A DNA stretch of 64,000 nt from positions 74,191 to 138,190 of the forward strand of contig JABILA010000085.1 of assembly GCA_018654745.1 (NCBI GenBank), in the 5' to 3' direction. The notes under the pieces were generated by a model. It was given only the letters and a program-made list of their open reading frames with translations, was not told where the DNA came from and did no database searches. Shown here piece after piece: positions 15,938 through 43,291 of the stretch. Each line of letters starts with the position of its first letter. The stretch's first letter is position 1. The position numbers and the translations under genes were made by a program. The stretch is from Alphaproteobacteria bacterium (GTDB lineage: Bacteria > Pseudomonadota > Alphaproteobacteria > UBA2966).

Positions 15938-17839
15938 TTACTCCGCCGCTTCTCGCTGCCCGACATCCTCGCGGCCCATCCATTTCTGGAAGACCGGTGT
16001 GGTTGGTGGCTCCAGATGTGTGTCGGCCATGCAACGCGCTTTCAATTCTTCCATGGTGCCACCACGGTCAAACAACTGGACTTCGCCGCGCTCGGTCTTC
16101 ATGCGTTGACGCAGATCATCCGTGGCACGCTGATCAACGTTGAAGCTGTCATCCAGCACCACGCCATAACGTTTTGCGCCTTCGATGGAGACAAGACCGC
16201 GACTGGTATCCAGCGCCACTTGTGCCGCCTCACGTGTAAGCGGATCACCCCAGCCACCACCGCCCCAGGTGTTGAAATAAAGCGTATCGCCATTGGCAAC
16301 CTTGATGCGGTCACATTTGGAGACCATCCACTCGCGGGTGCCATCGGCCCGGACCATCAGCTTGTCGCTACGTTGTCCCGGCAGGCCACCATTGACGCCC
16401 CACGGGTGGCTTAGCCAGCGATCATCATGGATTGAAATCTCGCCAGGCTCGAGGAATTGATAGCCCATGGACAGGCCATTGCCGCCGCGATGCAGGCCAG
16501 GGCCACCGGAATCGATGATGGTTTCGTAGGTCACAATGCGCAGTGGGAAATAGGCCTCAAGAAATTCGTTGGGCACATTGGTAAAAGCCGGCCACAGAGA
16601 ATGACCGTCGGGGCCATCACCGGCAGGACGGCCTGGCACACCGCCAAAGCCGATCTGATAGAGCTGATACCATTCACCGTTTTTGTCATAGCCCGAATAC
16701 ATAAAGTGCGGACTGTCCGAGAAACCGGCGGCACAGAGCGCATCCGGTGAGCCCTGGCCGAGGACGCCGCTCATGATGTCAAAGATACGCGACAGCAAGT
16801 GTGTGCGTGATGACAGCGCCGCTGGCCGGATCGGTTTCAAAATAGTGCCACGCGGAATGCGCACATCCACCAAATCGTAGAAGCCGTCATTGAACAGGAT
16901 TTGCGGATCAAACAGGTTGATGAAAAATGCCCCGAGGAACATTTTGAACATTTCCTCGTTGAGCAAGAAATTCACCGAACTGATGGACTGCGGATCAGTG
17001 CCGCCGAAATCAAAGATAACGTGGTCGCCCTCGCGCCACAGGGTGCAGGCGATTTTGTACGGGCCCATGCCCATACCGTCATCATCGATATAGTCTTCGA
17101 AATAGACTTTCTTTTCCGGCACCACCATATTCAGGATCGCGCTCATGGCGACGCGGTTGCGGTCCAGCATATTTTCCATGGCCCCAACCAGCTGGTCCGT
17201 GCCAAAGCGATCCGACATTTCCACAACACGCCGTTCGGCCAGACGCAACGCCGCGATGATGGCGTTGAAGTCAGACTTGTTCCATTCCGGCAAACGACAG
17301 TTGCGCAGGATCACACTGAGCAGTTCTTCGTTCAGCTTACCCTTGTGATAAATCTTCACAGGCGGCAACTGAATGCCTTCTTCAAAGATTTGTGCGGCGT
17401 CGGTGGGCAAACTGCCCGGCACCTTGCCGCCGACATCGGTCATGTGACCAAACATGGCAGCCCAGGCGACGATGCGACCATCGATGTAAATCGGCATCAT
17501 GGTCAGCCAGTCATTGAGGTGACTGATGGCACCATTGCAGCTGTAGGGATCGTTGGTCAGGAAGATGTCCCCTTCCTCGATCTCGCCGTCATAGCCTTCC
17601 TTGAAGCCCGAGAAGAACGAGCCGAACTGGCCAACAACCATCTTGCCGTCGGGATTGGCAATCATGGGGAAAGCGTCGTGCTGTTCACGTATACCCGGCG
17701 ACATGGCGGTGCGAAAGAGCACGGCATCCATCTCTGTACGGGCATTTTTCAGGGCGTTCTCAATGATATCAAGCGTAATCGGATCGATATCAACATTGTC
17801 GAACGGCCTGGTGTTGGTCTGGATAATTTTTGCGGGCAT
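15938..17839 (-). CDS. hyuB: Hydantoinase B/oxoprolinase family protein (ATP-dependent hydantoinase/lactamase beta subunit), copy 1
   Basis: 633 aa starting MPAKII...ITLDIIENALKNAR. HyuB-type conservation runs throughout. Confidence 0.85.
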   Translation of the reverse strand: MPAKIIQTNTRPFDNVDIDPITLDIIENALKNARTEMDAVLFRTAMSPGIREQHDAFPMIANPDGKMVVGQFGSFFSGFKEGYDGEIEEGDIFLTNDPYSCNGAISHLNDWLTMMPIYIDGRIVAWAAMFGHMTDVGGKVPGSLPTDAAQIFEEGIQLPPVKIYHKGKLNEELLSVILRNCRLPEWNKSDFNAIIAALRLAERRVVEMSDRFGTDQLVGAMENMLDRNRVAMSAILNMVVPEKKVYFEDYIDDDGMGMGPYKIACTLWREGDHVIFDFGGTDPQSISSVNFLLNEEMFKMFLGAFFINLFDPQILFNDGFYDLVDVRIPRGTILKPIRPAALSSRTHLLSRIFDIMSGVLGQGSPDALCAAGFSDSPHFMYSGYDKNGEWYQLYQIGFGGVPGRPAGDGPDGHSLWPAFTNVPNEFLEAYFPLRIVTYETIIDSGGPGLHRGGNGLSMGYQFLEPGEISIHDDRWLSHPWGVNGGLPGQRSDKLMVRADGTREWMVSKCDRIKVANGDTLYFNTWGGGGWGDPLTREAAQVALDTSRGLVSIEGAKRYGVVLDDSFNVDQRATDDLRQRMKTERGEVQLFDRGGTMEELKARCMADTHLEPPTTPVFQKWMGREDVGQREAAE

Positions 17840-17866
17840 GTGGAAAAGCCTCCTCTTGGTCCGATG

Positions 17867-20332
17867 TTATGCAGGGTTAATGATGATGTTGCCGACATCA
17901 TCAATTTCGCCCACATGGTCGGGCAGGATCAGCGTGGTTGAATCCATTTCAGTGACAACCGCCGGACCGCGGACCTTGTCCCCGGCTTTCAGCAAACTGC
18001 GGTCATAAATTTTTGCCGCATGGTTTTTACCATTGGCGTAAACATTGGTGTCTTCGTAGACGGCTTGTGAACCATCGCCCCCTCCTTGCGGCAGGCGTTC
18101 GGCGGTAGCTGTACTTTCACCGCCCTGAACCATGGCTCGCAGATTATATAATTCGCGCTGGGTATCCAGTTTAAAGGTGAATAGCTGTTCATGCAGGTCA
18201 TCAAACTGGCGACCCAGTTCCTTCAGACCCTGGCTTTTGAATTCTTCCGGTGTCATGTCCACCGTCAGGCGCATACCCTGACCGGCATAGCGCAGATCAA
18301 TCTGATAGAGGGTTGTTTGCTCGTCACGCGGCACGCCTTCGTCGTTGAGGACTTCGGCCGCCTGGGTTGCAAGTTCTTCCAGAACACCAAGCACTTCCTG
18401 ATCCGAGGTTTCGTCAAAGCGACGTACATAGGTGCGCGCCGCTTCGTTTCGCACCCGCGTTGTGGCATCGCCGTAAGCACACAACACGCCAGGTCCTGGT
18501 GGAATGATCACCGGCCACGAATTCATTAATCTACCAAGCGCATTGGCGTGAATGGGGCCTGCACCACCAAAGCCGATCAGGGCAAAGTCGCGCGGATCAA
18601 AACCCTGCTCCACCGACACAAGTCGCAAGGCACCAAACATATTTTCGTTGACGATGTTGACGATGCCTTCTGCGGCTTCCAGCATTGAAAGCCCCATGGC
18701 ATCGGCAACGTTTTTAACCGCCTTTTCCGCCGCCGCCCGATCCAGTGGCATGTCACCGCCCAGTTTGGCAGTTGAGGGCAGATAACCCAGCACAACATTG
18801 GCATCGGTTACGGTTGGTTCGGTTCCGCCCATGCCATAGGCCGCAGGTCCGGGCTCTGCGCCGGCACTTTGTGGTCCCACACGCAAGGCTTTGGTCAGTT
18901 CCGGCACATAGGCAATGGAGCCACCACCTGCACCAACCGTGCGCACATCAACGGAGGATGCCCGTACCGTAATATCCGCCACCCTGGTTTCGCGGCGGGT
19001 TTTGGCCACACCATCCTGGATCAGCGCCACATCGGTTGAGGTTCCGCCCATATCAAAGGTCAGCAAGTCCTTGTAACCGGCCTGTTTTGCCATCCAGATG
19101 GCACCGGAGACACCACCAGCCGGGCCCGACATCAACAGGTTCACCGGCAATTCCTTGGCACCGTCAGCAGAAGACAAACCACCGTCCGAGCGCAGGATAT
19201 GCAATTGCGTGCCACCCGTGCGACGATCCAGTTCCGACATCAGGTTTTCAATATATTTCGAGACAACCGGCCGGATATAGGAGTTCACGACCGTTGTTTC
19301 AGCTCGTTCATATTCATACATTTCCGGCACAATTTCCGACGAAATCGAAATCGGCACGTCCGGCATAACTTCCTGGGCGATCTCGCGAATGCGACGTTCG
19401 TGCGCCCCATTGGTATAGGAATTCATCAGGGAAACGGTCAGTGCTTCAATGCCATGTTTTGACAGGGCTGCCAGATCAGTGCGTAGTTTCTGTTCATTCA
19501 GCGCATCAACTGTTTCACCCTTGGCACTCATGCGCTCGTCAGCTTCAATGGTCAGCTCAAGCGGTGCCAGCGGATCGGTTTTGTTGAAAATCACCCAGCC
19601 GCCAAGGCCACCCGGCACATAGGACCGGGCAATTTGCAGGGTTTGTTTATACCCCTTGGTCATCACCAGCCCCACTTTGGCACCGGAGCCGGTCAGAACT
19701 GTGTTGGTTGCAACCGTTGTGCCGTGCATCACCTGGCCAATGGATGTTGGTTCTATCCCGGCGAGGCCGCATATCTTTTCAACACCGTTCAGGACGCCAA
19801 TGGAAGAATCCTGTGGGGTTGAAGGCACTTTGGCCGTAAAGGTTTGCCCGGATTTTTCCTCGATTAAAAGAAGATCGGTAAAGGTACCGCCAACATCCAC
19901 ACCCAACAGATAATCCCCACCTGATGGCGTACGTCGACGTGGTGCGTCGCGGGTATCGCTGACCGGCTTTGGTGCGACGGGCACAGGTGCTGGCGCCTTG
20001 CGAGCTTCCGGCGCGGGTTGGCGATTTTCTGGTTGCGGCACATATGAAGAAGGCTGGGCCGGTGCCGGAGATGACGCGGCGGCTGACCCGCCACTCATGG
20101 CCGGTGCGACAGTCGGTGTAGGTGCGATGACCGGTGCAGATGACGCAGACCCGTTTGATGTTTGCACAGGTGCAATCGATGGAGCCGCATTCGCTGTCGA
20201 CCGGGCCTCTGCACTGCCAGAGTCGCGACTGCCGCCAGATTTTTTAACGCCGCCCAGTTGGTCAAATTCGTTTTTGAAATCATCCAGCTGTGTGTCGAAC
20301 CAGCCAGTCAGATCTTTATTATCTTTTGTCAT
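17867..20332 (-). CDS. hyuA: Hydantoinase A/oxoprolinase family protein (alpha subunit), copy 1, with an N-terminal extension of about 140 aa (helix plus Pro/Ala/Ser-rich linker)
   Basis: The HyuA core begins at aa 141 (LLGVDVGGTFTD). Residues 1-140 are an amphipathic helix, DLTGWFDTQLDDFKNEFDQLGG, followed by a low-complexity P/A/S-rich segment. Confidence 0.85.
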   Translation of the reverse strand: MTKDNKDLTGWFDTQLDDFKNEFDQLGGVKKSGGSRDSGSAEARSTANAAPSIAPVQTSNGSASSAPVIAPTPTVAPAMSGGSAAASSPAPAQPSSYVPQPENRQPAPEARKAPAPVPVAPKPVSDTRDAPRRRTPSGGDYLLGVDVGGTFTDLLLIEEKSGQTFTAKVPSTPQDSSIGVLNGVEKICGLAGIEPTSIGQVMHGTTVATNTVLTGSGAKVGLVMTKGYKQTLQIARSYVPGGLGGWVIFNKTDPLAPLELTIEADERMSAKGETVDALNEQKLRTDLAALSKHGIEALTVSLMNSYTNGAHERRIREIAQEVMPDVPISISSEIVPEMYEYERAETTVVNSYIRPVVSKYIENLMSELDRRTGGTQLHILRSDGGLSSADGAKELPVNLLMSGPAGGVSGAIWMAKQAGYKDLLTFDMGGTSTDVALIQDGVAKTRRETRVADITVRASSVDVRTVGAGGGSIAYVPELTKALRVGPQSAGAEPGPAAYGMGGTEPTVTDANVVLGYLPSTAKLGGDMPLDRAAAEKAVKNVADAMGLSMLEAAEGIVNIVNENMFGALRLVSVEQGFDPRDFALIGFGGAGPIHANALGRLMNSWPVIIPPGPGVLCAYGDATTRVRNEAARTYVRRFDETSDQEVLGVLEELATQAAEVLNDEGVPRDEQTTLYQIDLRYAGQGMRLTVDMTPEEFKSQGLKELGRQFDDLHEQLFTFKLDTQRELYNLRAMVQGGESTATAERLPQGGGDGSQAVYEDTNVYANGKNHAAKIYDRSLLKAGDKVRGPAVVTEMDSTTLILPDHVGEIDDVGNIIINPA

Positions 20333-20398: not shown

Positions 20399-21046
20399 TC
20401 AGGGCGCATTGCGACCCCGCCAGGCCTCTATCCATTCAATAACGCTGTCGGTATCGGTGATGTCAGCATACCGTCGGCCGACATCCCGCAGATTGTCGTT
20501 GTGGGGTCGCTCGTCATGATCACCGACACCATCTTCCGGTACAATCGTTCGATACCCGAACTGAAAACTGTCGATCACAGATGCCCTGATGCATCCAGAT
20601 GTAACACAGCCCACCAAAATCACCGTATCAACTTTTTGTTTGACCAAAAACGGTACGATGGGTGTCTGGAAAAATATCGATGCCCCGGTCTTGCACATTT
20701 TGACGTCATAGGCGGGATCGTAAATTCTGGAATCCAGTTCCGTGCAAGGGTGGCCGTGGATCAAATCTTCACGAACCGCACGCACTTTCCAGTACGGCAT
20801 ATCCTCAAGAGATTTGTAGGCCGTATAACAAGTAGCGACCGGCACCTCGCAGCGCCGCGCGACGTCCAGCAAGCGCGCAGCGTTGTCGACAGCCCTGTCG
20901 ATCAGGGGCGCGCCCCCCAGCGGATATTTTTCTTCGGTAAAAGCGGTCTGGAAATCAACAACAACAATGGCAGGCCGATCGCCATAGCCAATGGTTTCCG
21001 TGCCATAGGTCCGCTCATGATATGTCGCTTCAGAAACGTCGCTCAT
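20399..21046 (-). CDS. Isochorismatase-family cysteine hydrolase (N-carbamoylsarcosine amidase-like), copy 1
   Basis: Core VDTVILVGCVTSGCIRASVIDSFQFGYR. The start was taken at MSDVSE with a GGGGAGA RBS. The longer ORF version (to 21163) would run through palindromic leader repeats. Confidence 0.75.
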   Translation of the reverse strand: MSDVSEATYHERTYGTETIGYGDRPAIVVVDFQTAFTEEKYPLGGAPLIDRAVDNAARLLDVARRCEVPVATCYTAYKSLEDMPYWKVRAVREDLIHGHPCTELDSRIYDPAYDVKMCKTGASIFFQTPIVPFLVKQKVDTVILVGCVTSGCIRASVIDSFQFGYRTIVPEDGVGDHDERPHNDNLRDVGRRYADITDTDSVIEWIEAWRGRNAP

Positions 21047-21203
21047 GATATCTCCCCTGATCGCGCACTGTGGTACCACAGCAAGATTGTCGTGGCGCCA
21101 CAGCAAAACCTGTCGTGGCGGTTCCACTGCATCGATAATTTCTGCGGCCCCCCGTTTGGGCAAGACAACAGTCTGTTTTCGTTGTGATCGAAAACACGCC
21201 GAT

Positions 21204-21369: not shown

Positions 21370-22455
21370 GTGGACAGCAAGTCAATCGCATTCCTGGAAG
21401 TCATGATTGCCCTTGGCGTCATAGGTATTCTGGCGTTTCTGGTATACCTGATTTCCCGTTTTGCCATGCACAACCGTGCCAAAACAGCGGTTGGAAAGAC
21501 CGTTGGCTACACCCCGCAGTGGTATGAATTCCTGTTGGCGGCGATCATAGTTGTCGTCGCAGCCATCTTGTTCCTCTGGCAGTTTCCACCCGGTGGGCGC
21601 GCAGACTGGGGTGAAGATTCACGTTCGATGACGTTCTTTGTCATTATGATGATCATTTGTGCCGTCGGCATTATTGTATTCCTTCTGACCGTCTTCTGGC
21701 GCATCGCCCAGACCCCGAAGGAAGCGCCAGCAGAAATCCTGACCGCCTCTGCTACCCCTTCGCCAGCACCGGCAGAGGAAACCGGGCCCGTCAAAGCCCG
21801 ACACGAATCACCCTCAGCCGTCAGATTGCTGGGTCTTCTGGGCTTTGTTGTCGCCTTTCTGGTTCTGAACTGGACCTGGGTCTCCTACGCTGATCAGTAT
21901 TTCCTGATGTTGAATCTGGTCTATCCGGCCGGCCTGGTCGTGGCCCTGGTGATGTTGTTTGACAAGGCCAACAGGGCCTGGAATGTCAAATTGCCGGGTG
22001 AGACGATCCGCGAATGGTTTTTCCTGGATGCAATACTGTTTCTTTATATCCTGGCGTATCTGAACCTGAGGCAGGCAGGCGGTGGTGAAAATTACACTGC
22101 CCAGTTCTGGGATGTCGTTAATGTTGTCGGCTTTTTGTTTGTCTTCTGGATCATTGATCGCAAGACCACCAGCCTCAGGTTTCTGGTCACACACATATAC
22201 TTCCTGGCCCTGCCGATCTTATTGCTGATCTGGCGTTCGGTTCAAGGCGTCGAAATCGCCGCAGATATTTCCTGGTGGAGTACGATCTGGCCGTTTTTTG
22301 CCCTGGCTGCCGTCTTCCTGGTGCTGGAATTCATTATTCTGATAATCAATCGTGAAAGTGATAATCAGACGGTCGGCACGGTCAAGGACGTCATATTCCT
22401 TATACTTTATGTGATTTTATTACTGGCGGCCCGGCCGGAAGTTGCAGCTTCATGA
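21370..22455 (+). CDS. Polytopic integral membrane protein of unknown function (about 9 TM segments)
   Basis: GTG start with a GAGGT RBS; ATG at 21403 is an alternative. Highly hydrophobic. Its stop overlaps the amidase ATG (ATGA). Confidence 0.55.
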   Translation: MDSKSIAFLEVMIALGVIGILAFLVYLISRFAMHNRAKTAVGKTVGYTPQWYEFLLAAIIVVVAAILFLWQFPPGGRADWGEDSRSMTFFVIMMIICAVGIIVFLLTVFWRIAQTPKEAPAEILTASATPSPAPAEETGPVKARHESPSAVRLLGLLGFVVAFLVLNWTWVSYADQYFLMLNLVYPAGLVVALVMLFDKANRAWNVKLPGETIREWFFLDAILFLYILAYLNLRQAGGGENYTAQFWDVVNVVGFLFVFWIIDRKTTSLRFLVTHIYFLALPILLLIWRSVQGVEIAADISWWSTIWPFFALAAVFLVLEFIILIINRESDNQTVGTVKDVIFLILYVILLLAARPEVAAS

Positions 22456-23864
22456 CAGATCTGGCACGCCTTGGCATTGCCGAACTGGGCGATCTGATCG
22501 CAAAAGGTGAAGCCTCACCTGTTGAAGTGATGCAGTCGACGCTGGCCAGGATCGACCGCCTTGATGGCGGATTAAACGCATTTCTGTCGATCTATCCTGA
22601 CCAGGCACTGGCGGCAGCGGCAAAAGCCGAAAAGGAACTCGCAAATGGTCAGTCTCGTGGGCCTTTGCATGGGGTCCCGCTTGGCATCAAGGATTTGTTT
22701 GAAGTCGAAGGCATGACCCGAACCTGTGGATCAAACCTGATCCAGGAACCGCCAGCAGAAAAAGACGCCACCAGCGTCGCCCGTCTGAAAGATGCCGGTG
22801 CGATTGTGGTTGGTCTTTTGAACCTCAATGAATTCGCCTATGGCCCGACCGGAATCAATATTCATAAAGGCTCCGCCCGCAACCCCTGGGATCGGAGCAA
22901 AACCTGTGGTGGATCAAGTGCCGGTGCTGGATGCGCTGTTGCCGCCGAACTGGTGCCAGGTGCCATGGGCACGGATACGGGTGGCTCGATCCGCATTCCG
23001 GCCTCGGTTTGTGGTGTGGTCGGATTAAAGCAAACCTTTGGCCTCGCCAGTCGACACGGTATTTATCCATTATGTGACAGTTTTGATCATGGCGGTCCCC
23101 TGACCCGCACCGTGCGTGATGCGGCCTTGATGTTACAGGCGTTCGCCGGTGAAGATTTGCATGACTTTACGACACGCGGCGCACGTACAGACAACTATTC
23201 GGCCCGGCTTGGTCAATCTATCAAGGGCCTCAAGGTTGGTGTCCCCACATCATTTTTCTTCGACGATGTACATGCAGACACGGTAGCCGCCGTGCGCGCC
23301 GCGATTCAGGTTTTCAGTGATCTCGGCGCGGACGTTCAGGAAGTGGACGTGCCATTTGGTCAGGATGCTGTCGACAGCTGGAATACCATGGCCATGGCAG
23401 AAGCCTTTGTTGTCCATGAAGACCATATGGCCACCAACAAATATGACCTGGCACCGGATGTCAGCAGCCGTCTTGAGCTTGGCCGTAACATCAGCGCCCG
23501 GGATTATCTGGCATCGCGGGAACATCAAACCCGGGTCAAACAGGAAATGCAGGCCTTTATGGCGGACTATGATGTGCTTGCCATGCCAACTTCACCGATT
23601 CCGGCGATTTCGATTGAGACTGGCACAGCAAACCTGAACGGACGGGAAGTTGATGGCGCACCAATTATGGGGCGGCTGACACGAATGGCTGTGTTTACCG
23701 GCCAACCGGCGATCAGTGTACCTTGCGGGTTTACGAACGAGGGTTTGCCCATTGGCTTGCAACTAATGGGGCACTGGTTTGACGAGGCCGCTTTGCTGGG
23801 GGCTGCCGATGCCTATGAACAGGCAACAAGTTGGCACACGATGGTGCCACCGGAGATTAATTGA
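22452..23864 (+). CDS. Amidase signature (AS) family amidase
   Basis: Carries GGSSAGAGCAVAAELVPGAMGTDTGGSIRIPAS, the AS signature with the Ser-cisSer-Lys triad context. Confidence 0.85.
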   Translation: MTDLARLGIAELGDLIAKGEASPVEVMQSTLARIDRLDGGLNAFLSIYPDQALAAAAKAEKELANGQSRGPLHGVPLGIKDLFEVEGMTRTCGSNLIQEPPAEKDATSVARLKDAGAIVVGLLNLNEFAYGPTGINIHKGSARNPWDRSKTCGGSSAGAGCAVAAELVPGAMGTDTGGSIRIPASVCGVVGLKQTFGLASRHGIYPLCDSFDHGGPLTRTVRDAALMLQAFAGEDLHDFTTRGARTDNYSARLGQSIKGLKVGVPTSFFFDDVHADTVAAVRAAIQVFSDLGADVQEVDVPFGQDAVDSWNTMAMAEAFVVHEDHMATNKYDLAPDVSSRLELGRNISARDYLASREHQTRVKQEMQAFMADYDVLAMPTSPIPAISIETGTANLNGREVDGAPIMGRLTRMAVFTGQPAISVPCGFTNEGLPIGLQLMGHWFDEAALLGAADAYEQATSWHTMVPPEIN

Positions 23865-24607: not shown

Positions 24608-26059
24608 TTACCCGCCGTTTCGCGAACCCGGGGCCCGTGACGGGATATCGCCGGAACGGCCTGGCGTGTACATGCCGCCATAGGCGCCGCGCTTGACGAA
24701 GTTGCCATCGCCCTTTTGGCCCAGATACTGACCCTTGTCGATGATCATGCGACCTCGGCTGAAGACGGTTTCGGTGAAGCCTTTCACCGGCATGCCTTCA
24801 TAAGCGTTGTAATCGATGTTCATGTGATGGGTATGACCGTTGTAATAGCTGATGATCTCTTCGCGTTCAGGATCGAAGATCACGATGTCGGCGTCACTAC
24901 CCACAGCAATGGTGCCCTTTTTCGGGAACAGGCCAAAGATTTTGGCGGGTGAGGTTGATGTCAGTTCGACAAAACGGTTGATGTCCAGGTATCCCCCGTT
25001 GACGCCATAGTGATAGATCAGGCTCATACGGTTTTCGATGCCGGGGCCGCCATTGGGGATCTTGCTGAAGTCGCTTTTGCCCAGTTCCTTCTGTTCTTTC
25101 ATGCAGAATGGGCAATGATCCGTTGAAATGGCGTTCAGGGCATTGCCGCGCAATCCGCGCCACAGTTCTTCCTGGTTCCACTTTTCCCTGAGCGGCGGTG
25201 TCAGCACATATTTAGCGCCCTCAAAACCTGGCTCATCATATTTGTCGACATCCAGCAGCAGGTATTGCGGGCAGGTTTCAGCATGGGCCATGACGCCACG
25301 GGCCTGGGCCATGCGCAGCTCCTGCAGCGAGTCATAGCTGCTAAGGTGTACAATGTAGACCGGCGACTTCGCCACTTCGGCAATTGCCAATGCACGGTGA
25401 ACGCCCTCTGCTTCGAGGCGTGTGGGCCTGGTCAGGGCATGATATTTGGGTTCAATGTGGCCTTCCGACAGGGCGATCTTGATCAGCTCATCGATCACAA
25501 CACCATTTTCCGCGTGCATGCAAATCAGCGTACCGTCTTCGCCAGCCTGGCGCATGGCCCGGAATATTGTGCCGTCATCAGACATCATGGCCCCTGGATA
25601 GGCCATAAACATTTTGTAACTTGTGACCCCTTCGTCCGCCAGCGCCCGCATTTCCTTTGTGCGCGTTTCCGGCATATCTGTCAGGATCATATGGAAGGCA
25701 TAATCAATCGCTGTTTCCCCGGCAGCCTTGGCATGCCACGTTTCCAGGGCTTCCAGAGACGACTGCCCCTTCATCTGAACGGCGAAATCAATGATGCAAG
25801 TGGTGCCTCCGAATGCGGCGGCACGTGTGCCTGTTTCGAACGTATCCGACGTGGTTGTTCCACCAAAGGGAAGCTCGAGATGCGTGTGCGGATCGATACC
25901 GCCAGGGATCACCAGCTTGCCTGCGGCATCAACCACAACATCGGCTTCCAGTTGCAGATTTTTGCCAATCAGGTCAATCGTGTCGTCATTGACATAGATA
26001 TCTGCGTGATAGTCGTCTGTTGCCGTTACGATCCGGCCATTCTTGATTAATACGCTCAC
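24608..26059 (-). CDS. D-hydantoinase / dihydropyrimidinase (cyclic amidohydrolase)
   Basis: 483 aa from a GTG start with a GGGGAGG RBS. Starts MSVLIKNGRIV...GGIDPHTHL and has a carboxylated-Lys region. It has a C-terminal Gly/Pro-rich tail of about 25 aa. The longer ORF to 27061 is an artefact. Confidence 0.85.
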   Translation of the reverse strand: MSVLIKNGRIVTATDDYHADIYVNDDTIDLIGKNLQLEADVVVDAAGKLVIPGGIDPHTHLELPFGGTTTSDTFETGTRAAAFGGTTCIIDFAVQMKGQSSLEALETWHAKAAGETAIDYAFHMILTDMPETRTKEMRALADEGVTSYKMFMAYPGAMMSDDGTIFRAMRQAGEDGTLICMHAENGVVIDELIKIALSEGHIEPKYHALTRPTRLEAEGVHRALAIAEVAKSPVYIVHLSSYDSLQELRMAQARGVMAHAETCPQYLLLDVDKYDEPGFEGAKYVLTPPLREKWNQEELWRGLRGNALNAISTDHCPFCMKEQKELGKSDFSKIPNGGPGIENRMSLIYHYGVNGGYLDINRFVELTSTSPAKIFGLFPKKGTIAVGSDADIVIFDPEREEIISYYNGHTHHMNIDYNAYEGMPVKGFTETVFSRGRMIIDKGQYLGQKGDGNFVKRGAYGGMYTPGRSGDIPSRAPGSRNGG

Positions 26060-26089
26060 AAAATGCCTCCCCTGATCAATCTGGTTTGC

Positions 26090-26102
26090 TATAATTGTAT
26101 AC
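26090..26102. promoter_or_regulatory. TATAAT-TTGTATAC motif, followed by a TTGTAT repeat, in the divergent promoter between the D-hydantoinase and the ABC transporter
   Basis: Reads gcTATAATTGTATACTGTTGTATca. Confidence 0.4.
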
Positions 26103-26236
26103 TGTTGTATCATCTTGCACACTACGTGATCACAGAAATCATTAATTGGCCTTTGAGAATGACCAGGTAATAGTTTGAGATCGTGTTCATTCGCGTTAAG
26201 GCCGGAAAAATAACAATCGCTCCAGGGAGAACGAAG

Positions 26237-27508
26237 ATGGCCAAAGACAAGAAGAAGACTAGTAGCAAAGTATCGCGTCGCCAGTTTGTTGGCGGTGCCG
26301 CAGGCGCAGTCGCCGCAAGCTCGGTAGTCGGATTTCCGGCAATCGTCTCGGCAGCCGACCCTATTCGCGCCATTGGTCTGGGCGTGAGTATCATCAATGA
26401 AATTCAAAGCCGTGCCGCCAAGGATATTGGCTTTGGTATTCGGGGCCAGGCGCTTGGTTATGGTGCCCTGTTCGGCAAGACTTTGAACCAGAACGACCAG
26501 TATGAAGTGTCGGAATGCTATTTCGACATGTTCGACGCAATGGTGCCGTCCAAGGTATTCCAGCCCATTGATACCAAGCGTATCCGTGACTGGGACAAGG
26601 TCTCGAACCTTGTTAAAACCGGCAAGCTGACACCAGGTTCGCAAATCGGTCAGGGCGATGCACCTGTTACCAAGTTGTGGGTCGACAAGGACGGTAATCC
26701 AACCGATGGTCCGTCGCAATATATCTCGGCTGTTCCAGCTGCGCATAATGCGGACTCGCTGGGCTATAACCCGGACGACACCGGCCGCGCGATTGAAAGC
26801 TGGGCCGAACTCTACAGCCCGGATTTCAAAGGCAAGGTTGCGCTTATCAATGTGCCTCAGGTTGGTGTGATGGATGCTGCCATGGGCATGGAAGCGTTGG
26901 GTCTGGCGAAATTCGGCGACAAGGGTGACATGACCCGCGCTGAAATCGACACCTTGATCGAGTTCCTGATCGTCAAGAAAAAGGAAGGCCACTTCCGCGC
27001 TTTCTGGGAAACCTTCGGCCAGTCCGTGAACCTGATGGTATCCGGTGAAGTCGCCCTGCAAAGCATGTGGTCACCGGCGGTGACGGCTGTAAATGCTGAA
27101 GGTGTTAAGTGCGTCTATGCTTCACCAAAAGAAGGCATGCGTGGCTGGCATGGTGCATTGGCAATTTCCGCCAAGGCATCCGGCAAAAAGCTTGATCAGG
27201 CTTATGAATATATCAACTGGTGGCTGGATGGCTGGGCCGGTGCCTTTGTGGCGCGTCAGGGCTACTATTTCTCGACGCCGGCAAATACCAAAAAGCACCT
27301 GCCAAAAGCAGACTGGGATTTCTGGTATGAAGGCAAGCCTGCTGCCATGGAACTCAATGATCCGTTTGGCTCTCCATTGGTCGAAAAAGGCGCTGTCCGT
27401 GACGGTGGCTCCTATGAACAGCGCTTCAAGAACATCGCTGTCTGGAACTCGATCATGAAAGAAAATGATTATCTGGTGAAACGCTGGACCGAGTTTCTCG
27501 GCTCCTGA
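26237..27508 (+). CDS. ABC transporter periplasmic substrate-binding protein (PotD/PotF-like family) with a Tat signal
   Basis: GGGAGA RBS. Twin-arginine motif SRRQFVGGAAGA, followed by an SBP family-1 fold. Confidence 0.75.
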   Translation: MAKDKKKTSSKVSRRQFVGGAAGAVAASSVVGFPAIVSAADPIRAIGLGVSIINEIQSRAAKDIGFGIRGQALGYGALFGKTLNQNDQYEVSECYFDMFDAMVPSKVFQPIDTKRIRDWDKVSNLVKTGKLTPGSQIGQGDAPVTKLWVDKDGNPTDGPSQYISAVPAAHNADSLGYNPDDTGRAIESWAELYSPDFKGKVALINVPQVGVMDAAMGMEALGLAKFGDKGDMTRAEIDTLIEFLIVKKKEGHFRAFWETFGQSVNLMVSGEVALQSMWSPAVTAVNAEGVKCVYASPKEGMRGWHGALAISAKASGKKLDQAYEYINWWLDGWAGAFVARQGYYFSTPANTKKHLPKADWDFWYEGKPAAMELNDPFGSPLVEKGAVRDGGSYEQRFKNIAVWNSIMKENDYLVKRWTEFLGS

Positions 27509-29480: not shown

Positions 29481-30581
29481 TCAGCGGTTCGCCGTCACGA
29501 CGTCCAGCAAAATTCCGGCTTCGGCGCCCCAGCTGATGGTTTCGCGGTCGCCGTAGTTACGTATGGAATCAGATAGTTTCCGGTGTTGCTCCACCTTGAC
29601 ATAATGTTGCGGCGCAATCTCAAAAACATCGGTTTCCAGGGTGCCGAGATATTCCGTGTTGACATAGGCACCTTCAATTGAATTCGCCATGTCGCCATTT
29701 TCGCCCGTATGCATCAGGTCAGCCCGGACAGAAAAAGTGACTTCCTGGCCGACGGCGACGTCCGCGATATAGTCTGGCTTTCGCACGTAATAGAGTTTTT
29801 CACCGGATTCAACGAAAACGATGGAACCGCTGCGCGACTTGATCACACCGTCAAAGAGATTGTTCGTGCCGATGAAGTCAGCAACAAAGCGGGTGCGTGG
29901 CGATTCGGCGATTTCCCGGGAGGTGCCGATTTGTTGCACCAGACTGTCACTCATAACGATGACCTTGTCGGCCATGGCCATGGCTTCCGCCTGTGAGTGC
30001 GTGACCATGATAAAGGTCATCTCAAGATCACGCTGAATGCGCTTTAACTCAATCATCATGGTCTGGCGCAGCGAATAGTCCAGCGCGCCCAATGGTTCAT
30101 CCAGCAATAGCAAAGTCGGGTTGGAAATCAGGGCACGGGCGAGGGCAACACGTTGTTGCTGGCCACCGGATAAATCTGCCGGACGCCGCATGGCAAAATC
30201 ACTCAGGCCCACCATTTCAATCATCTGCCAGGCTTCGCGCGAACGTTTGTCGGGCTCGATACCCTGCATTTTCAGACTGAATTCAACGTTCTGCAAAACA
30301 TTGCGGTGGGGAAACAGCGCGAAGCTCTGGAACATCATCGCTGTGTCGCGCTGCGACGGAGGCAGGTCTGTGACGTCCTCCCCCTGTATCTCGATAGATC
30401 CGGAGGTGACTTCCTCGAGACCGCCGATCATGCGCAGGGTCGTGGTCTTGCCACAGCCCGACGGCCCCAGCATGGCAACAAACTCACCCCGTTCAATCTC
30501 GGCGTTGAAGTCAATTACCGCACGTACACCGCCGGGGTAAGTCTTGTCGACGTTCCGGAGAACGACGTCAATTTCAGCCAT
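29481..30581 (-). CDS. ABC transporter ATP-binding protein (PotA-like, with C-terminal TOBE domain)
   Basis: Walker A GPSGCGKTT, signature LSGGQQQRVALARAL and Walker B LLLDEPLGALD. It is on the opposite strand to its permeases and co-directional with the flotillin gene 12 nt upstream. Confidence 0.85.
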   Translation of the reverse strand: MAEIDVVLRNVDKTYPGGVRAVIDFNAEIERGEFVAMLGPSGCGKTTTLRMIGGLEEVTSGSIEIQGEDVTDLPPSQRDTAMMFQSFALFPHRNVLQNVEFSLKMQGIEPDKRSREAWQMIEMVGLSDFAMRRPADLSGGQQQRVALARALISNPTLLLLDEPLGALDYSLRQTMMIELKRIQRDLEMTFIMVTHSQAEAMAMADKVIVMSDSLVQQIGTSREIAESPRTRFVADFIGTNNLFDGVIKSRSGSIVFVESGEKLYYVRKPDYIADVAVGQEVTFSVRADLMHTGENGDMANSIEGAYVNTEYLGTLETDVFEIAPQHYVKVEQHRKLSDSIRNYGDRETISWGAEAGILLDVVTANR

Positions 30582-37845: not shown

Positions 37846-38138
37846 TGCACCTCCCTGTTTTTCAGCCTCGTTAAGACTTGATGGCCAAATACGTCAAACC
37901 CCGAAAATGTATACAACATTTACAGGGTTATTATTCAGCCCCTACCCCGGATACTTGATTGTAGCCTTATTATCGTCGATTGGGCCCTTGTATGATTCTC
38001 TAACCAGCGTCCCGGGTCAACGCCCGAATAGACTTTGTATGCAAAATAACCACATCAGTTTGACAGAAACGCAATTACATGTACCATTCGGCCAGTGAGG
38101 TACGCCCACATCTCGAACTTCAATGGATAATAAGAACG

Positions 38139-38666: not shown

Positions 38667-39722
38667 TCAGGCGGATAGCTGCTGAATATCCGAATTCGCA
38701 AGGCCGTTGAAGGCCGCCAGTGAGGCTTCAATCCGGGCCTGATCCATATCGCGCACTATAAAGACCAGCCTTGATCTCTTGTCTTCATCCGGCCAGTTTT
38801 CGAGATGCACCGGTGGGTGCACGACATGCTGCACACCGTTGATCAGCACCGGCGTGCCAACCCCCAGTACATTTAGCATCCCTTTGATTCTTAACACTTT
38901 ATCGCCGTAATGATTGAGCAACATGGTCATCCAGATGCCATAGGCTGTCCAGTCCAGGGGGGCATCAAAAGTCAGGGCAAAGGACGTGACACCGGAGGTA
39001 TGAAGGTGATCGCCCGCGTTATCATGATCATGCCCCGCATGTGAGGCGGTCGTTGCCGTCGACATCAGGTGGTTGATTTCCTGGCGCTTGCCTTTTGGGT
39101 CATGAATATCTTCCGTGATCAAACGCCGGGGACCAAGATCATCAACGGCTGCATCAAATAAAGGTGCCGAAATATTCAGGCGCTGCAGGGCGAGGCGCAA
39201 GGCTGCCGTGTCGCCCGGGTCCGCAATATCCGTTTTGGTGATAATCAGGCGGTCGGCAACAGCGACTTGTTTAACAGGCTCTTCAAATTCCGCCAGCTGT
39301 TTCAAGCCGTTGACGGCATCGACCGTAGTGATCACATTGCCAAGGCGGAAATGATGCTGCAACACAGGTTCCGCCAATACCGTATAGGCGATAGGCACGG
39401 GGTCAGCGAGACCGGATGTTTCGATAATCACGCGTTTAAAAGCCGGTATTTCACCGCGTTCCCGACGGTCGAACAAATCCCGCAAACTGTCCTTGAGATC
39501 ACCGCGAATGGCACAGCAGATACAGCCATTGTCCATCAACAAAGTGCTCTCGGTGGCGGTCTCCAGCAGGTGATGATCGAGACCAACTTCGCCAAATTCA
39601 TTGACCAGCACCGCCGTGTCATCGAGCAAAGGCGAATGTAATAACTGCTGCAGCAAGGTCGTTTTACCGCTGCCGAGGAAGCCGGTCACGACATTGACGG
39701 GAATGAAAGAATTGTATGCCAT
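38667..39722 (-). CDS. COG0523 (CobW/ZigA/Zng1-like) G3E-family GTPase metallochaperone
   Basis: P-loop GFLGSGKTT and the GCICC metal-binding motif. It has a C-terminal CobW_C-like domain with His-rich stretches (HAGHDHDNAGDHLH). Confidence 0.8.
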   Translation of the reverse strand: MAYNSFIPVNVVTGFLGSGKTTLLQQLLHSPLLDDTAVLVNEFGEVGLDHHLLETATESTLLMDNGCICCAIRGDLKDSLRDLFDRRERGEIPAFKRVIIETSGLADPVPIAYTVLAEPVLQHHFRLGNVITTVDAVNGLKQLAEFEEPVKQVAVADRLIITKTDIADPGDTAALRLALQRLNISAPLFDAAVDDLGPRRLITEDIHDPKGKRQEINHLMSTATTASHAGHDHDNAGDHLHTSGVTSFALTFDAPLDWTAYGIWMTMLLNHYGDKVLRIKGMLNVLGVGTPVLINGVQHVVHPPVHLENWPDEDKRSRLVFIVRDMDQARIEASLAAFNGLANSDIQQLSA

Positions 39723-40051: not shown

Positions 40052-41065
40052 TTACCTCGGGTTTCGGGCGGCAAAGTCATCGGCAATTTCATCAAATGTG
40101 CAGAACCGCACACCCGTATGGGCGCTGATATGATCAAAGACCCGTTGCAGCATCATCTGAACCTGCGGTCGCCCGGACACATCCGGATGGATCGTCAAGG
40201 TGAAGACAGCATAATCATATTCGTTATAAACCCAGTCGAACTGATCAATCCACAATTGTTCGATATCGCGCGGATTAACAAAACCATGACTGTTTGGAGC
40301 GCCCTTGATGAACATCATCGGTGGCAAATCATCGAGATACCAGCTGCCGGGAATATCAATCAGATCCGTTTCCTGACCACGAACCAGCGGTTTCATCCAT
40401 TCGTCCGGGTGCTTGGAATAATCGATCTTGGTCCAGCTGTCGCCAACGCGCGCATAAAACGGGTGGAAGTCGTCGTTCATCAAACTGTGGTCGTACTTGA
40501 TGCCCTTGGCCAACAACAGTTCGTTGGTAATGGGACTGAATTCCCACCACGGCGCTACATAGCCGGTGGGTCGCCTGCCGGAAACCTCTTCAATCAGCTC
40601 GATACATTTGTCCATCACCGCTTCTTCCTGAACCGGTGTCATGGCGATGGGATTTTCATGACTGTAGCCATGCATGCCAATTTCATGTCCGGCATCAACC
40701 ACCATCTGGGTTTCTTTCGGAAAAGTCTCGATGGAGTGGCCGGGGATAAACCAGGTGGTGGGGATTTGCCATTTGTCGAACAAGCGCACCAAACGCGGCA
40801 CCCCCACTTCACCGGCAAACAAACCACGGGAAATATCACAAGGCGAATCTTCGCCACCGTATGACCCCAACCAACCGGCAACAGCATCCACATCAACACC
40901 CACGGCACAAAGGATTTCCTTGCGTCCGCCACTGGCCGCAGACCGGCTGGCGATGGAACTGGAGGCTGAGCTGGAAGAAAAGGCCGGGCGAGGCTGATAT
41001 CGCCCACCTGACACACCGCCGCGAATACCCTGTGTTGGTCGACCAGACCCGGAACTGTCACTCAT
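40052..41065 (-). CDS. Polysaccharide deacetylase (CE4) family protein, PuuE/allantoinase-like, with an N-terminal Ser/Gly-rich disordered segment of about 50 aa
   Basis: Catalytic region ...[13 protein letters not shown]...[13 protein letters not shown]...HPDVSGRP. The N-terminus reads [47 protein letters not shown]. Confidence 0.75.
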
Positions 41066-41143
41066 CCCAAAAAATCCCCCTGTATACTTTGTTGTGATTA
41101 TTTTTAATCCTGGCCTTGTTATTCTGCAATCAGATCATGTTTA

Positions 41144-41151: not shown

Positions 41152-41156
41152 TAAGG

Positions 41157-41248: not shown

Positions 41249-41312
41249 GCTCTAGGGCGTCTTCAATGAAACCTGTTTCTCAGAAAATGCGACGGGACAA
41301 CCAGGGAGAAAG

Positions 41313-42041
41313 TTGTTGAGCGATTGGCAAGACGAAACACTGCAGAGTTATCAGAACAAGGGCCTGGGCTCTCGTGCCGGGTTCGGCAAACGTCCGGCAT
41401 TGTTAATAGTGGATTTCATTAACGGATTTACCGACCCGTCTTCGCCGCTGGGTGGTGATTTTTCGAGCCAGTTGGCCGTGACCGGTCAATTGCTGGAAGT
41501 TTTCCGCCGCGAACGGCTGCCCATCGCATATACCACTATTGAATATGACGCCGATTATCGCGATGCCGGTGTCTTTATCAAAAAGGTCCCATCGCTTTCG
41601 GTGCTGCTGCGGGGCTCTCCCATGTGCAATATCGATGATCGTATCCGCCCCGAAACCGGCGAATATATTGTCTCCAAAAAATACGCCAGCAGCTTCTTCG
41701 GCACCAATCTGGATACCTGGTTGCGCAACAATGACGCCGACACCGTTGTCATTGTCGGCTGCACCACAAGCGGATGCGTCCGCGCTTCTGCCGTTGATTC
41801 GCTGCAATACGGTTATTACACCATCGTTGTCCGGGAAGGCTGCGGTGACCGGGCAGATGGCCCCCACGAAGCCAATCTTTTTGATATGGACGCCAAATAT
41901 GCTGACGTTGTCTCGACTGCAGAAGCCCTGGACTATGCCAACGGCCTGACCCGCAAACCTGATTCTCATGCAGCGCGTGTAGCTGGCCGCAACTTCAAAA
42001 GCTGGTGGGCCGAAGGCAACACAGACAAGCAGGAAGGATAG
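41313..42041 (+). CDS. Isochorismatase-family cysteine hydrolase (N-carbamoylsarcosine amidase-like), copy 2
   Basis: TTG start with an AGGGAGA RBS. Carries VVIVGCTTSGCVRASAVDSLQYGYY. It is a paralog of 20399-21046. Confidence 0.75.
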   Translation: MLSDWQDETLQSYQNKGLGSRAGFGKRPALLIVDFINGFTDPSSPLGGDFSSQLAVTGQLLEVFRRERLPIAYTTIEYDADYRDAGVFIKKVPSLSVLLRGSPMCNIDDRIRPETGEYIVSKKYASSFFGTNLDTWLRNNDADTVVIVGCTTSGCVRASAVDSLQYGYYTIVVREGCGDRADGPHEANLFDMDAKYADVVSTAEALDYANGLTRKPDSHAARVAGRNFKSWWAEGNTDKQEG

Positions 42042-42045
42042 ACCG

Positions 42046-42255: not shown

Positions 42256-42290
42256 CGACAAACCAAGAACCATAAATCGGAGTTAACCGT

Positions 42291-43160
42291 GTGAGTAATT
42301 CAATCATCCGCGACAAACTGGATCGTGGCGAATTTTTTCTGGCGCCTGGCATCCACGATATGATGGCCGCCGTGATTGCCAACAAGGTTGGATTTGAAAT
42401 TGTCTATGGCACAGGCTACTGGATGACCGCTTCGGCTTATGGTCTGCCGGATGCCGGTATTGCAACCTATTCCCAAATGCTGGACCGGGTTTCTACCCTG
42501 GCCAGAACTTCGGACGCGGCGGTGATTGCGGATGCGGATACCGGTTACGGCGGCTTGTTGAATGTGCACCACACCGTGCAAGGATATGAAGAGGCCGGGA
42601 TCACGGCCATTCAGATTGAAGACCAGGAATTCCCTAAAAAATGCGGCCACACACCCGGCAAAAAATGTGTGCCGCTGGAAATCATGACTGACAAGATCAA
42701 GGTCGCCTGCGATGCCCGCAAGGACAAGAAGAATACCCTGATCGTGGCCCGGACAGATATTTACCAGGCCGAAGGGTTTGATGCCTCCATCCGCCGTGGC
42801 GCTGCCTTTGCCGAAGCCGGCGCTGACATTATCTTTGTCGAAGCCCTGACCAGCGAAGACGAAATGCGCCGGGCCTGCGATGAAATCGACGCCCCGATGA
42901 TTTCCAATATGGCCCAGGGTGGTGATACCCCCATGCGCACAGGCGAAGAACTGGCGGATATTGGCTATGCCTGCGCCATCTATCCGGCAACGACAGCCCT
43001 GTCCGCGGCCTATGCCACCGAACAGGCCCTGCTGCATTTGAAACACCAGGGCACCAACGAAAGCCCGGATGTGCCGATGTTTGATTTCCAGGAGTTTAAT
43101 CGCCTGATCGGCTTCGAAGAAGTCTGGGCCTTCGACAAAAAATGGGCCCGCGACGACTGA
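42291..43160 (+). CDS. Isocitrate lyase/PEP mutase superfamily enzyme (2-methylisocitrate lyase / carboxyvinyl-carboxyphosphonate phosphorylmutase-like)
   Basis: GTG start with a GGAG RBS. Carries ADADTGYGG...IQIEDQEFPKKCGHTPGK...ARTD, close to PrpB. Confidence 0.8.
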   Translation: MSNSIIRDKLDRGEFFLAPGIHDMMAAVIANKVGFEIVYGTGYWMTASAYGLPDAGIATYSQMLDRVSTLARTSDAAVIADADTGYGGLLNVHHTVQGYEEAGITAIQIEDQEFPKKCGHTPGKKCVPLEIMTDKIKVACDARKDKKNTLIVARTDIYQAEGFDASIRRGAAFAEAGADIIFVEALTSEDEMRRACDEIDAPMISNMAQGGDTPMRTGEELADIGYACAIYPATTALSAAYATEQALLHLKHQGTNESPDVPMFDFQEFNRLIGFEEVWAFDKKWARDD

Positions 43161-43192
43161 GGGGAAGGCCTATATCGTTCCCTCAGCACCCC

Positions 43193-43291
43193 GTCACTCC
43201 GGGCTTGACCCGGAGTCTCTGGTGAAGCTGGATTAAGGGATGTGGTGCAGGTTGAGACAATGCTGAGACTCCGGGTCAAGCCCGGAGTGAC
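43193..43291. repeat. REP/MITE-like element, copy 2 (same 27-bp arms as 24461-24558, different 45-nt spacer)
   Basis: Arms at 43193-43219 and 43265-43291. It lies between convergent gene ends. Confidence 0.7.

Follow-up and report, generated by a model that had tools for sequence, protein, structure and literature searches.

A conserved gene island proposed for the catabolism of small cyclic amides, with candidate membrane-assembly components, in uncultured Proteobacteria

Do two hydantoinase modules lying side by side in one genome represent two catabolic pathways or a single system? The question is raised by a 27-kb region of contig JABILA010000085.1 (assembly GCA_018654745.1) from an alphaproteobacterium, which was analyzed within a stretch of 64,000 nucleotides (the window, to which all positions refer). 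An initial annotation of this DNA had recognized two modules, each comprising hyuA and hyuB genes for the subunits of an ATP-dependent hydantoinase, a gene for an isochorismatase-family hydrolase and a gene for a small membrane protein with four transmembrane helices (4-TM; 4TM-1 and 4TM-2), and had proposed two parallel pathways in which a lactam or hydantoin ring is opened and a carbamoyl or amide group is then hydrolyzed. All the genes it named were recovered at or near the places given for them by open reading frame (ORF) listing and profile scans (Table 1), and the paralogy of the duplicated genes is real, with pairwise matches of the HyuB, HyuA, isochorismatase and 4-TM proteins far beyond chance. 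The independence of the two modules was not borne out: they are co-inherited pieces of a single conserved island, present at more than 200 genome loci. As a whole, the region may be read as a single conserved island for the catabolism of small cyclic amides, whose products form a membrane-assembled complex, a reading that is given an even chance here and whose assembly part is inferred.

The island was followed by a pattern scan for the 4-TM family with one genome per species, which returned 217 loci, and the best 80 of these were examined. Neighbors were counted by tblastn of the window proteins against these 80 species-level loci, each gene being scored only in loci with enough flanking sequence. 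The core consisted of the genes for the ATPase of an ATP-binding cassette (ABC) transporter, an SPFH protein, HyuB2 and HyuA2, then 4TM-2, then a CobW-family GTPase, the small protein p107 and a deacetylase-fold enzyme, and finally isochorismatase-2 and a small ORF. Next to 4TM-2, hyuA2 was found in 67 of 71 loci and hyuB2 in 59 of 63, and the genes for the SPFH protein (57/59), the ABC ATPase (54/57), the CobW GTPase (66/77), p107 (63/76), the deacetylase-fold enzyme (65/73) and isochorismatase-2 (47/72) were likewise found beside it. The hyuA2 count used a HyuA identity threshold of 40%, under which the match fell in three loci (L015, L062 and L068), and the four cases scored as missing hyuA2 were only partly inspected. 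In a distant genome of 4.28 Mb, the full two-module arrangement recurred, minus the amidase gene. Because the whole block recurs in distant genomes and the neighbors of 4TM-2 are kept across loci, the island is regarded as one system and not two.

All of the best 80 loci came from metagenome-assembled genomes (MAGs) and none from a cultured strain. The hosts belonged to the Alphaproteobacteria, Gammaproteobacteria and Burkholderiales, the alphaproteobacterial entries being titled Rhodospirillaceae, Rhodobiaceae, Rhizobiaceae, Xanthobacteraceae and Limibaculum, and so far the island has been found only in uncultured marine and soil Proteobacteria. Its genes were identical in contig JABHDP010000149.1 of MAG GCA_018672995.1, and a copy of 4TM-2 with 93% identity was present in the MAG isolate SI053_bin31 (titled Alphaproteobacteria bacterium). 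The genes flanking the island varied between genomes.

The minus-strand operon of module 2 runs from hyuA2 (37845-35746) through hyuB2 (35743-33470) and the SPFH gene (33407-30594) to the ATPase gene (30581-29481). Between the modules lie the genes for a D-hydantoinase/dihydropyrimidinase, which keeps the same position in locus L008, a PotD/F-like binding protein and two permeases. HyuB1 and HyuB2 share 51% identity over 582 residues, HyuA1 and HyuA2 48% over 678 residues, the two isochorismatase-family proteins 36% (E 4e-40), and 4TM-1 and 4TM-2 33% (E 4e-29). At least two forms of the second module were seen: the window form, hyuB1-hyuA1-iso1 / mem361-4TM1, and a soil form ("type 3"), hyuA3-hyuB3-mem361-4TM1, which lies 3' of isochorismatase-2 in many MAGs (isolate names MFD...) and whose hyuA3 and hyuB3 constitute a third, more divergent pair with 36% and 31% identity to the window pairs. 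Throughout the census synteny a 4-TM gene sat with a HyuAB pair, and mem361, encoding a polytopic membrane protein, was always with 4TM-1.

The earlier proposal of two independent pathways for different substrates, in which the 4-TM proteins would be module-specific accessories, draws on the presence of a HyuA, a HyuB, an isochorismatase-like gene and a 4-TM protein in each module and on the exchange of the second module between the window type and the soil type. Yet many genomes and contigs contain both modules, the SPFH gene, the importer ATPase gene and the trio of imidase, p107 and GTPase genes occur on module 2 only, and a domain of the HyuB subunits (here called X) and a short N-terminal peptide are common to both. 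A single functional unit is therefore suggested, and two independent pathways are judged unlikely. What stood of that proposal was the succession of ring opening and hydrolysis, as far as the enzyme families show it.

Domain calls were made with Pfam and with the equivalog cut-offs of NCBIfam, and solved relatives were ranked by Protein Data Bank (PDB) bit score. The hallmark activity of the HyuA/HyuB family is the hydrolysis of a cyclic amide at the expense of ATP by an (alpha-beta)2 heterotetramer. In both pairs, Hydant_A_N, Hydantoinase_A and Hydant_A_C of the A subunit and Hydantoinase_B of the B subunit scored above the Pfam cut-offs. The ATP-binding motifs of the HyuA family, DxGGTxTD, DxGGT and GxxPGP (PMC8453981), appeared in pairwise alignment as GVDVGGTFTD, FDMGGTSTD and GAEPGP in HyuA1 and as GIDVGGTFTD, FDMGGTSTD and GARPGP in HyuA2. 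The metal site of CapB is formed by D41, H99, D101 and H124 (PMC8453981); D55, H107, D110 and H132 of HyuB1 align with CapB D41, H99, D102 and H124 (in alignment numbering, where D102 is the D101 of that report), and the same residues are kept in HyuB2 by pairwise alignment. For all four subunits, the PDB ranking was headed by the fused 1288-residue N-methylhydantoinase (7hk5/9h03), followed by caprolactamase (6yra) and then by the acetophenone and acetone carboxylases, with 226 bits for 7hk5 versus 206 for 6yra_B in the case of HyuB1, and 478 for 7hk5 versus 392 for 6yra in that of HyuA2. The CapA and CapB equivalogs NF050156 and NF050157 were missed, the A subunits scoring 534 and 521 bits and the B subunits 205 and 240 bits against a cut-off of 1000. 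Neither a clustering with housekeeping 5-oxoprolinase nor a place of the membrane paralogs in a known family of unrelated function, both of which the initial annotation had named as contrary evidence, was found.

Belonging to the same superfamily and giving significant matches to its carboxylases, the HyuAB pairs might also be taken for ATP-dependent carboxylases of the acetone or acetophenone type. Those enzymes stand far down the ranking, however (53 versus 226 bits for HyuB1), no gene for a carboxylase-type third small subunit was detected in the cluster, and the neighboring genes encode amidohydrolases, which makes this assignment very improbable.

Both isochorismatase-family proteins matched PF00857 above its cut-off and contain the motifs VDF, K(K/T)xAS(S/I)FF and GCxTSGC(V/I)RAS, which presumably carry an Asp-Lys-Cys triad, after D51, K144 and C177 of the Arthrobacter N-carbamoylsarcosine amidohydrolase (CSHase). 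Isochorismatase-2 matched the N-carbamoylsarcosine amidohydrolase 26st with 221 bits, followed by NicF (3ot4, 160 bits), 4l07 (146) and 1nba (129), and isochorismatase-1 matched 26st (135 bits), 4l07 (118) and 1nba (98); 3ot4 and 4l07 we take to be maleamate amidases. By these closest solved relatives, both proteins would best be placed in the N-carbamoylsarcosine/maleamate amidase subgroup. A 215-residue product of the isochorismatase-1 gene is called in other assemblies. Because the ATP and metal motifs are kept and because N-methylhydantoinase and N-carbamoylsarcosine amidohydrolase rank first, the best enzymatic reading of the HyuAB and isochorismatase-family genes is that a ring is opened at the cost of ATP and a carbamoyl or amide group is then removed.

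The same combination is known from the creatinine/N-methylhydantoin pathway of Pseudomonas putida 77 and Arthrobacter, which employs N-methylhydantoinase and N-carbamoylsarcosine amidohydrolase (PDB 7hk5/9h03, 26st and 1nba). Each island module pairs the same two enzyme families, and the best solved relatives of both come from that pathway. Unlike in the creatinine pathway, identity is only moderate, the block contains neither a creatinine deaminase nor a sarcosine-oxidizing enzyme, and the island subunits carry extensions of 140-165 residues absent from the characterized members, whose HyuA and HyuB subunits measure 690-707 and 564-594 residues, respectively (PMC8453981). Membrane or SPFH partners of the creatinine/N-methylhydantoin pathway were not found described in the literature searched. 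The island enzymes further resemble CapAB/OplBA of Pseudomonas (6yra) in being ATP-dependent heteromeric ring-opening hydrolases with the same ATP motifs and B-subunit metal site, and differ from them in falling under the equivalog cut-offs and in gene context.

Three components had not been weighed in the initial annotation, namely the 937-residue SPFH protein, an imidase gene with its COG0523 GTPase and Cys-rich partner, and the shared N-terminal peptides. The deacetylase-fold gene had indeed been noted there, but as PuuE-like, and this label was not borne out: its product scored 78 bits for TIGR03212 against a cut-off of 425 and was 71% identical over 290 residues (507 bits) to Helicobacter pylori HP0310/HpPgdA (PDB 3qbu). 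HP0310, described as an "atypical peptidoglycan deacetylase", lacks a signal peptide and has only a small pocket at its active site, and its homologues were reported beside polyamine-type importers (PMC3084791); its own substrate is disputed (PMC3084791, PMC3688963). Among the structural relatives of the fungal cyclic imidase HxnM, HP0310 is also the closest; HxnM shares 64% identity with the imidase of Pseudomonas putida, and imidase activity is established for HxnM and CIH (PMC9304392). The assignment of the island enzyme to the HP0310/HxnM/CIH family follows PMC9304392 and PMC3084791. A Ser/Gly-rich, low-complexity N-terminal extension of 47 residues (40925-41065) on this HP0310 orthologue lies outside the aligned region.

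The 107-residue p107 matched no family in Pfam or NCBIfam, and its motifs MCxLCGxLGGxGHWT (N-terminal and strictly conserved) and cDPLd were kept across 61 sequences; it resembles a small metal-binding protein that would act together with the GTPase and the imidase. The genes for imidase, p107 and GTPase were also present on a plasmid of Rhizobium sp. CIAT894 (L090, 8109-10375), flanked by an ABC importer, two short-chain dehydrogenases/reductases, an amidase and an NADH:flavin oxidoreductase, with no HyuAB, SPFH or 4-TM genes alongside. The trio may represent an imidase accompanied by proteins that help to metallate it, which as a portable unit would have been recruited into the island. The Rhizobium plasmid gene set recalls the late part of the hxn nicotinate pathway (HxnT/W/M/N). 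Cyclic imide catabolism, known from the CIH of P. putida YZ-26 and HxnM/HxnN of Aspergillus nidulans and with HP0310 as its structural representative, combines an imidase with a half-amidase. In the island, a gene for a hydrolase resembling maleamate amidase lies divergently beside the HP0310-like gene, and the island imidase, like the HP0310 homologues (PMC3084791), lies near a polyamine-type importer; unlike in those systems, the trio is embedded among HyuAB, SPFH and 4-TM genes. The island places the HP0310 family among cyclic-amide catabolic genes, beside a GTPase and a Cys-rich partner, and this context therefore supports a small-molecule imidase role.

The Tat-exported binding protein of an ABC transporter, reported by the initial annotation, was found with its twin-arginine motif, and the ATPase gene of the importer closes the operon that contains the SPFH gene. 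The flotillin-like SPFH protein has an N-terminal transmembrane (TM) segment (residues 5-23), an SPFH domain, a repetitive charged segment of ~500 residues rich in Glu, Arg and Ala, and a conserved C-proximal region, with residues 31-240 and 720-840 as its most conserved stretches. The SPFH domain is predicted to face the cytoplasm. This membrane anchor, SPFH domain, charged repeats and conserved C-proximal segment are shared with flotillin/SPFH scaffolds such as FloT, YqiK and HflK/C, whereas the island protein is much longer and stands inside a catabolic enzyme operon. It did not reach the FloT equivalog (32 bits against a cut-off of 700), and no NfeD partner of it was detected.

As in the initial annotation, the small membrane proteins could not be placed in a known family: neither had a Pfam or NCBIfam match below E 0.001, and a PDB match was also lacking. 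The blocks LIFLYFYxPF, IFW..V.GI..HW and ATLQAV.ML.EHL pointed out there are real, several of their residues being invariant across 26 family members, and the invariant residues of the family include N48, W52, H66 and Q108. Homologues numbered at least 633 for 4TM-2 and 425 for 4TM-1. The ORF of 4TM-2 opens at 38079, and homologues and gene callers all start at Met 38139. A profile built from the 26 members and searched against 1.84 billion cluster representatives found 87 clusters only, all of them family members or fragments, and in none of the 87 representatives was the 4-TM domain fused to a second one. The plasmids of PLSDB yielded no copy of the family. The AlphaFold2 model of 4TM-2 is a four-helix bundle (pLDDT 71), for which Foldseek found nothing in the PDB below E 0.8. 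Positive-inside reasoning predicts cytoplasmic locations for both termini, and the 4TM-2 clade has a conserved, basic C-terminal tail, RAFRxGWxxRRPPPR. By its sequence record, the 4-TM family appears as an orphan specific to this cluster, known only beside these hyuA genes. mem361 likewise matched neither Pfam nor NCBIfam, and it adjoined 4TM-1 in six listed loci (L008, L024, L027, L067, L082 and L085).

A 4TM-1 homologue apart from hyuAB was observed in a 5.25-Mb genome titled Rhodobiaceae (L009, 3400-10477), just 3' of a cluster of PspA, YqiJ (NfeD-like) and Band7/Flot genes with insertion sequence elements nearby; D-hydantoinase and binding-protein genes lay 8 kb beyond it. Either the locus has been rearranged, or it offers another hint that the 4-TM and SPFH families are connected.

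The main rival to a membrane platform is that the 4-TM proteins and mem361 are transport components and not anchors, either a channel for substrate or product or an exporter of the ring-opening product, ammonium or bicarbonate, with the peptides serving regulation or oligomerization. The invariant polar residues N48, H66 and Q108 lie within or next to predicted helices, and a channel or binding role therefore fits them as well as an anchor does; mem361 with its ~9 predicted TM segments is permease-like, and the anchoring reading itself is drawn from sequence. Against transport speak the complete ABC importer already encoded in the island and the absence of any transporter family or fold matching a four-helix protein of 160-175 residues, and the peptide and linker common to three soluble island proteins would be left unexplained. 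Transport is on balance considered somewhat unlikely.

The anchoring reading draws on these shared peptides. HyuB2 carries an N-terminal extension of ~165 residues (35240-35743) composed of a conserved peptide, a disordered linker and the X domain. The peptide (ISLDDLLTANKDQFDQLF, at about 35654-35716) follows the consensus (V/I)S(L/F)DDLLxANKxQFDx(L/I/V)F within the first ~30 residues, is predicted to be helical and is kept in nearly all alpha- and gammaproteobacterial orthologues, whose linkers differ. Behind the linker, most alphaproteobacterial HyuB2 versions have the folded X domain of ~80 residues (about 35324-35554 in the window; E 4e-27 with an X-domain hidden Markov model, HMM). Besides its N-terminal place in HyuB2, this domain was located C-terminally in HyuB3, where it follows a Pro-rich linker, and in a free-standing ORF of ~150 residues (p150). 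The C-terminal extension of HyuB3, ~140 residues long (L030, 17008-19233; also L027, L033, L050, L060 and others), mirrors the N-terminal placement in HyuB2. BLASTP gave no match between the X domains of HyuB2 and HyuB3, whose relationship is visible only by multiple alignment and HMM, and no relationship of the X domains to p107; a homology search with residues 1-168 of HyuB2 returned no relatives. A Rad52-like fold for the X domain was not supported, as neither its profile nor its structure resembled the N-terminal domain of Rad52.

HyuA1 has an N-terminal extension of its own, ~140 residues long, with the peptide WFDxQLDDxKxEFDxLGG (about 20249-20332) before a Pro/Ala-rich linker (about 19913-20248). 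This peptide is related to but distinct from that of HyuB2 and recurs in L008 and L011, where the linker has diverged. The third carrier, p69, consists of a HyuB2-like N-terminal SAFDDMLASNEKQMNDVLG, a linker and the C-terminal GIPFTLKT, and represents a short form of the p150 ORF family. It is called as a gene in three assemblies; its orthologues have 68-78 residues in L001 and L003, and ~150 residues with an X domain in soil genomes, directly after isochorismatase-2. Searched against 21,978 ORF fragments, an HMM of the HyuB2 peptide retrieved the N-termini of p69/p150 in ~30 loci with almost no unrelated matches, the individual E-values being weak (2e-5 to about 10).

Could the extensions be artefacts of wrong starts and p69 a spurious ORF? 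The NCBI caller starts hyuB2 31 codons later (726 residues), and the linkers are of low complexity. However, the peptide is conserved at the protein level from Alpha- to Gammaproteobacteria despite the variable linker, the hyuB2 ORF begins 2 nt past the hyuA2 stop codon, the X domain is matched across loci with E 1e-20 to 1e-36, and p69/p150 ORFs bearing this peptide are found in the same place from locus to locus. An artefact is thus extremely improbable. A short conserved terminal peptide, a variable linker and their occurrence on several enzymes of one locus recall the cargo peptides of microcompartments and encapsulins. The resemblance is one of architecture only, and no shell or encapsulin domain was present among the island products.

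These features suggest the following scheme, in which the enzyme families are established and both the sequence of reactions and the substrate are deduced. A substrate such as a hydantoin, cyclic imide or dihydropyrimidine would be imported by the PotABCD-like ABC system with its Tat-exported binding protein. The two N-methylhydantoinase-like HyuAB enzymes would then phosphorylate and open stable rings at the expense of ATP, following which the two cysteine hydrolases of the N-carbamoylsarcosine/maleamate type would strip the exposed carbamoyl or amide group. Other ring types would be opened by the dihydropyrimidinase and the HP0310-type cyclic imidase, the latter probably metallated with the help of the neighboring COG0523 GTPase and of Cys-rich p107. 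The island would likely serve nitrogen scavenging. As for assembly, the 4-TM proteins, the 9-TM mem361 and the flotillin-like SPFH protein may form a membrane platform holding the soluble enzymes, which would be recruited by the N-terminal peptide and linker on HyuB2, p69 and, in a variant form, HyuA1, together with the tethered X domain. Ring opening would thereby be placed beside the importer, whose ATPase gene belongs to the hyuA2-hyuB2-SPFH operon. The more specific proposal of a new metabolon, in which a giant SPFH assembly facing the cytoplasm, with 4TM-1, 4TM-2 and mem361, recruits the hydantoinases and an amidase adaptor via docking peptide and X domain so that import and ring opening are physically coupled or even enclosed at the membrane, is regarded as rather unlikely.

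Several points weigh against a membrane-assembled cyclic-amide pathway. Identity to the solved N-methylhydantoinase is modest (~30-40%, estimated by eye from alignments), and the block contains no creatinine deaminase, cytosine deaminase, sarcosine oxidase or other sarcosine-oxidizing enzyme. The polar residues N48, H66 and Q108 of the 4-TM proteins count here as well. Four 4TM-2 homologues (P0023, P0028, P0032 and P0084) are tagged PF28548.1, an entry absent from the local Pfam, so that the family may have a recent DUF-type entry. With respect to the peptides, p69 of the window scored a weak E-value of 2.6 with the HyuB2-peptide HMM, the same HMM missed the HyuA1 peptide, and the single-sequence model of the HyuB2 extension is of low confidence (pLDDT 48). 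Physical interaction among the island proteins is inferred throughout, from gene context and shared peptides.

Table 1. Features of the island in the window.
Feature	Coordinates	Strand	Basis or remark
hyuB1, hydantoinase B subunit, 633 aa	15938..17839	-	PF02538 E 9e-146
hyuA1, hydantoinase A subunit, 821 aa	17867..20332	-	PF05378, PF01968, PF19278
Isochorismatase-family cysteine hydrolase 1	20399..21163	-	PF00857 E 2e-27; likely start Met 21046, 215 aa
mem361, polytopic membrane protein	21370..22455	+	Hydropathy; ~9 predicted TM segments
Amidase-signature amidase, accessory	22452..23864	+	PF01425 E 1.5e-115
4TM-1, four-helix orphan membrane protein, 159 aa	23954..24433	+	Paralogue of 4TM-2
D-hydantoinase / dihydropyrimidinase	24608..26113	-	TIGR02033 598 bits, cut-off 393
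PotD/PotF-like substrate-binding protein	26237..27508	+	PF13416; twin-arginine signal SRRQFV
Two ABC permease genes, PotB-/PotC-like	27665-28645 and 28647-29474	+	PF00528; NCBIfam PotB/PotC-like
ABC transporter ATPase	29481..30581	-	PF00005; last gene of hyuA2-hyuB2-SPFH operon
Flotillin-like SPFH/Band 7 protein, 937 aa	30594..33407	-	PF01145 E 2e-13
hyuB2, hydantoinase B subunit, 757 aa	33470..35743	-	PF02538 over residues 170-688
hyuA2, hydantoinase A subunit, 699 aa	35746..37845	-	PF05378, PF01968, PF19278
4TM-2, four-helix orphan membrane protein, 174 aa	38139..38663	+	Divergent from hyuA2
COG0523/CobW-family GTPase (putative metallochaperone)	38667..39722	-	PF02492, PF07683
p107, Cys/His-rich protein, 107 aa	39723..40046	-	Between GTPase and deacetylase-fold genes
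HP0310/HxnM/CIH-family enzyme (putative cyclic imide hydrolase)	40052..41065	-	PDB 3qbu; PF01522
Isochorismatase-family cysteine hydrolase 2	41313..42041	+	PF00857 E 3.5e-33
p69, small ORF, 69 aa	42046..42255	+	4 nt after isochorismatase-2
Phosphoenolpyruvate (PEP) mutase / isocitrate lyase superfamily protein, accessory	42291..43160	+	PF13714

Two island genes are accessory. The amidase gene, correctly named by the initial annotation as was the D-hydantoinase gene, encodes a product that stayed under every NCBIfam equivalog cut-off, and no amidase gene lies between mem361 and 4TM-1 in L008. The PEP-mutase-type gene occurred in L001/L016 and L015, was absent from most loci and is thus kept only in close relatives. 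An Rfam scan of 15000-44000 found no riboswitch or other family, and comparison of the three divergent promoter regions gave no convincing shared operator repeat.

The creatininase-family gene of the initial annotation is present (48819-49541) and was set aside as a pathway member because the block that other genomes conserve does not include it. It stands beside genes for a glutathione S-transferase and an amino-acid-type ABC transporter (SBP_bac_3, ATPase and permease; 48819-52689 in all), and it is absent at that position in other genomes. On the minus strand at 44495-46548, an acyl-CoA dehydrogenase is encoded as two adjacent ORFs, one for the N-terminal and middle parts (383 residues) and one for the C-terminal part (275 residues), a split called identically in three independent assemblies. 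Upstream of the island, a cluster at 6540-15937 encodes an AstE/AspA-like desuccinylase, an SMP-30/gluconolactonase, a cyclase, a metallo-beta-lactamase-fold protein, an FAA hydrolase, a GntR regulator, the TRAP transporter DctPQM and a CMD-family protein, and is probably an unrelated catabolic operon.

The enzymology of the island thus appears as a variation on already known enzymes, and what is new would be the accessory layer of the 4-TM family, docking-like peptides, X domain and giant SPFH protein, which is undescribed as far as the literature was searched. No paper was found combining a hydantoinase with SPFH, CobW or polysaccharide deacetylase proteins, and the literature searched holds no link between an SPFH/flotillin protein and a catabolic enzyme of the ATP-dependent hydantoinase/lactamase type. 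ATP-dependent hydantoinases and lactamases have so far been treated as soluble enzymes; if the peptide and the membrane proteins do assemble them, the island would be a genetically compact, flotillin-organized pathway. The island enzymes are candidates for the biocatalytic opening of stable lactams, hydantoins and imides. If true, the assembly would also provide a testable function for an orphan membrane family with a wide distribution among uncultured Proteobacteria of marine and soil origin.

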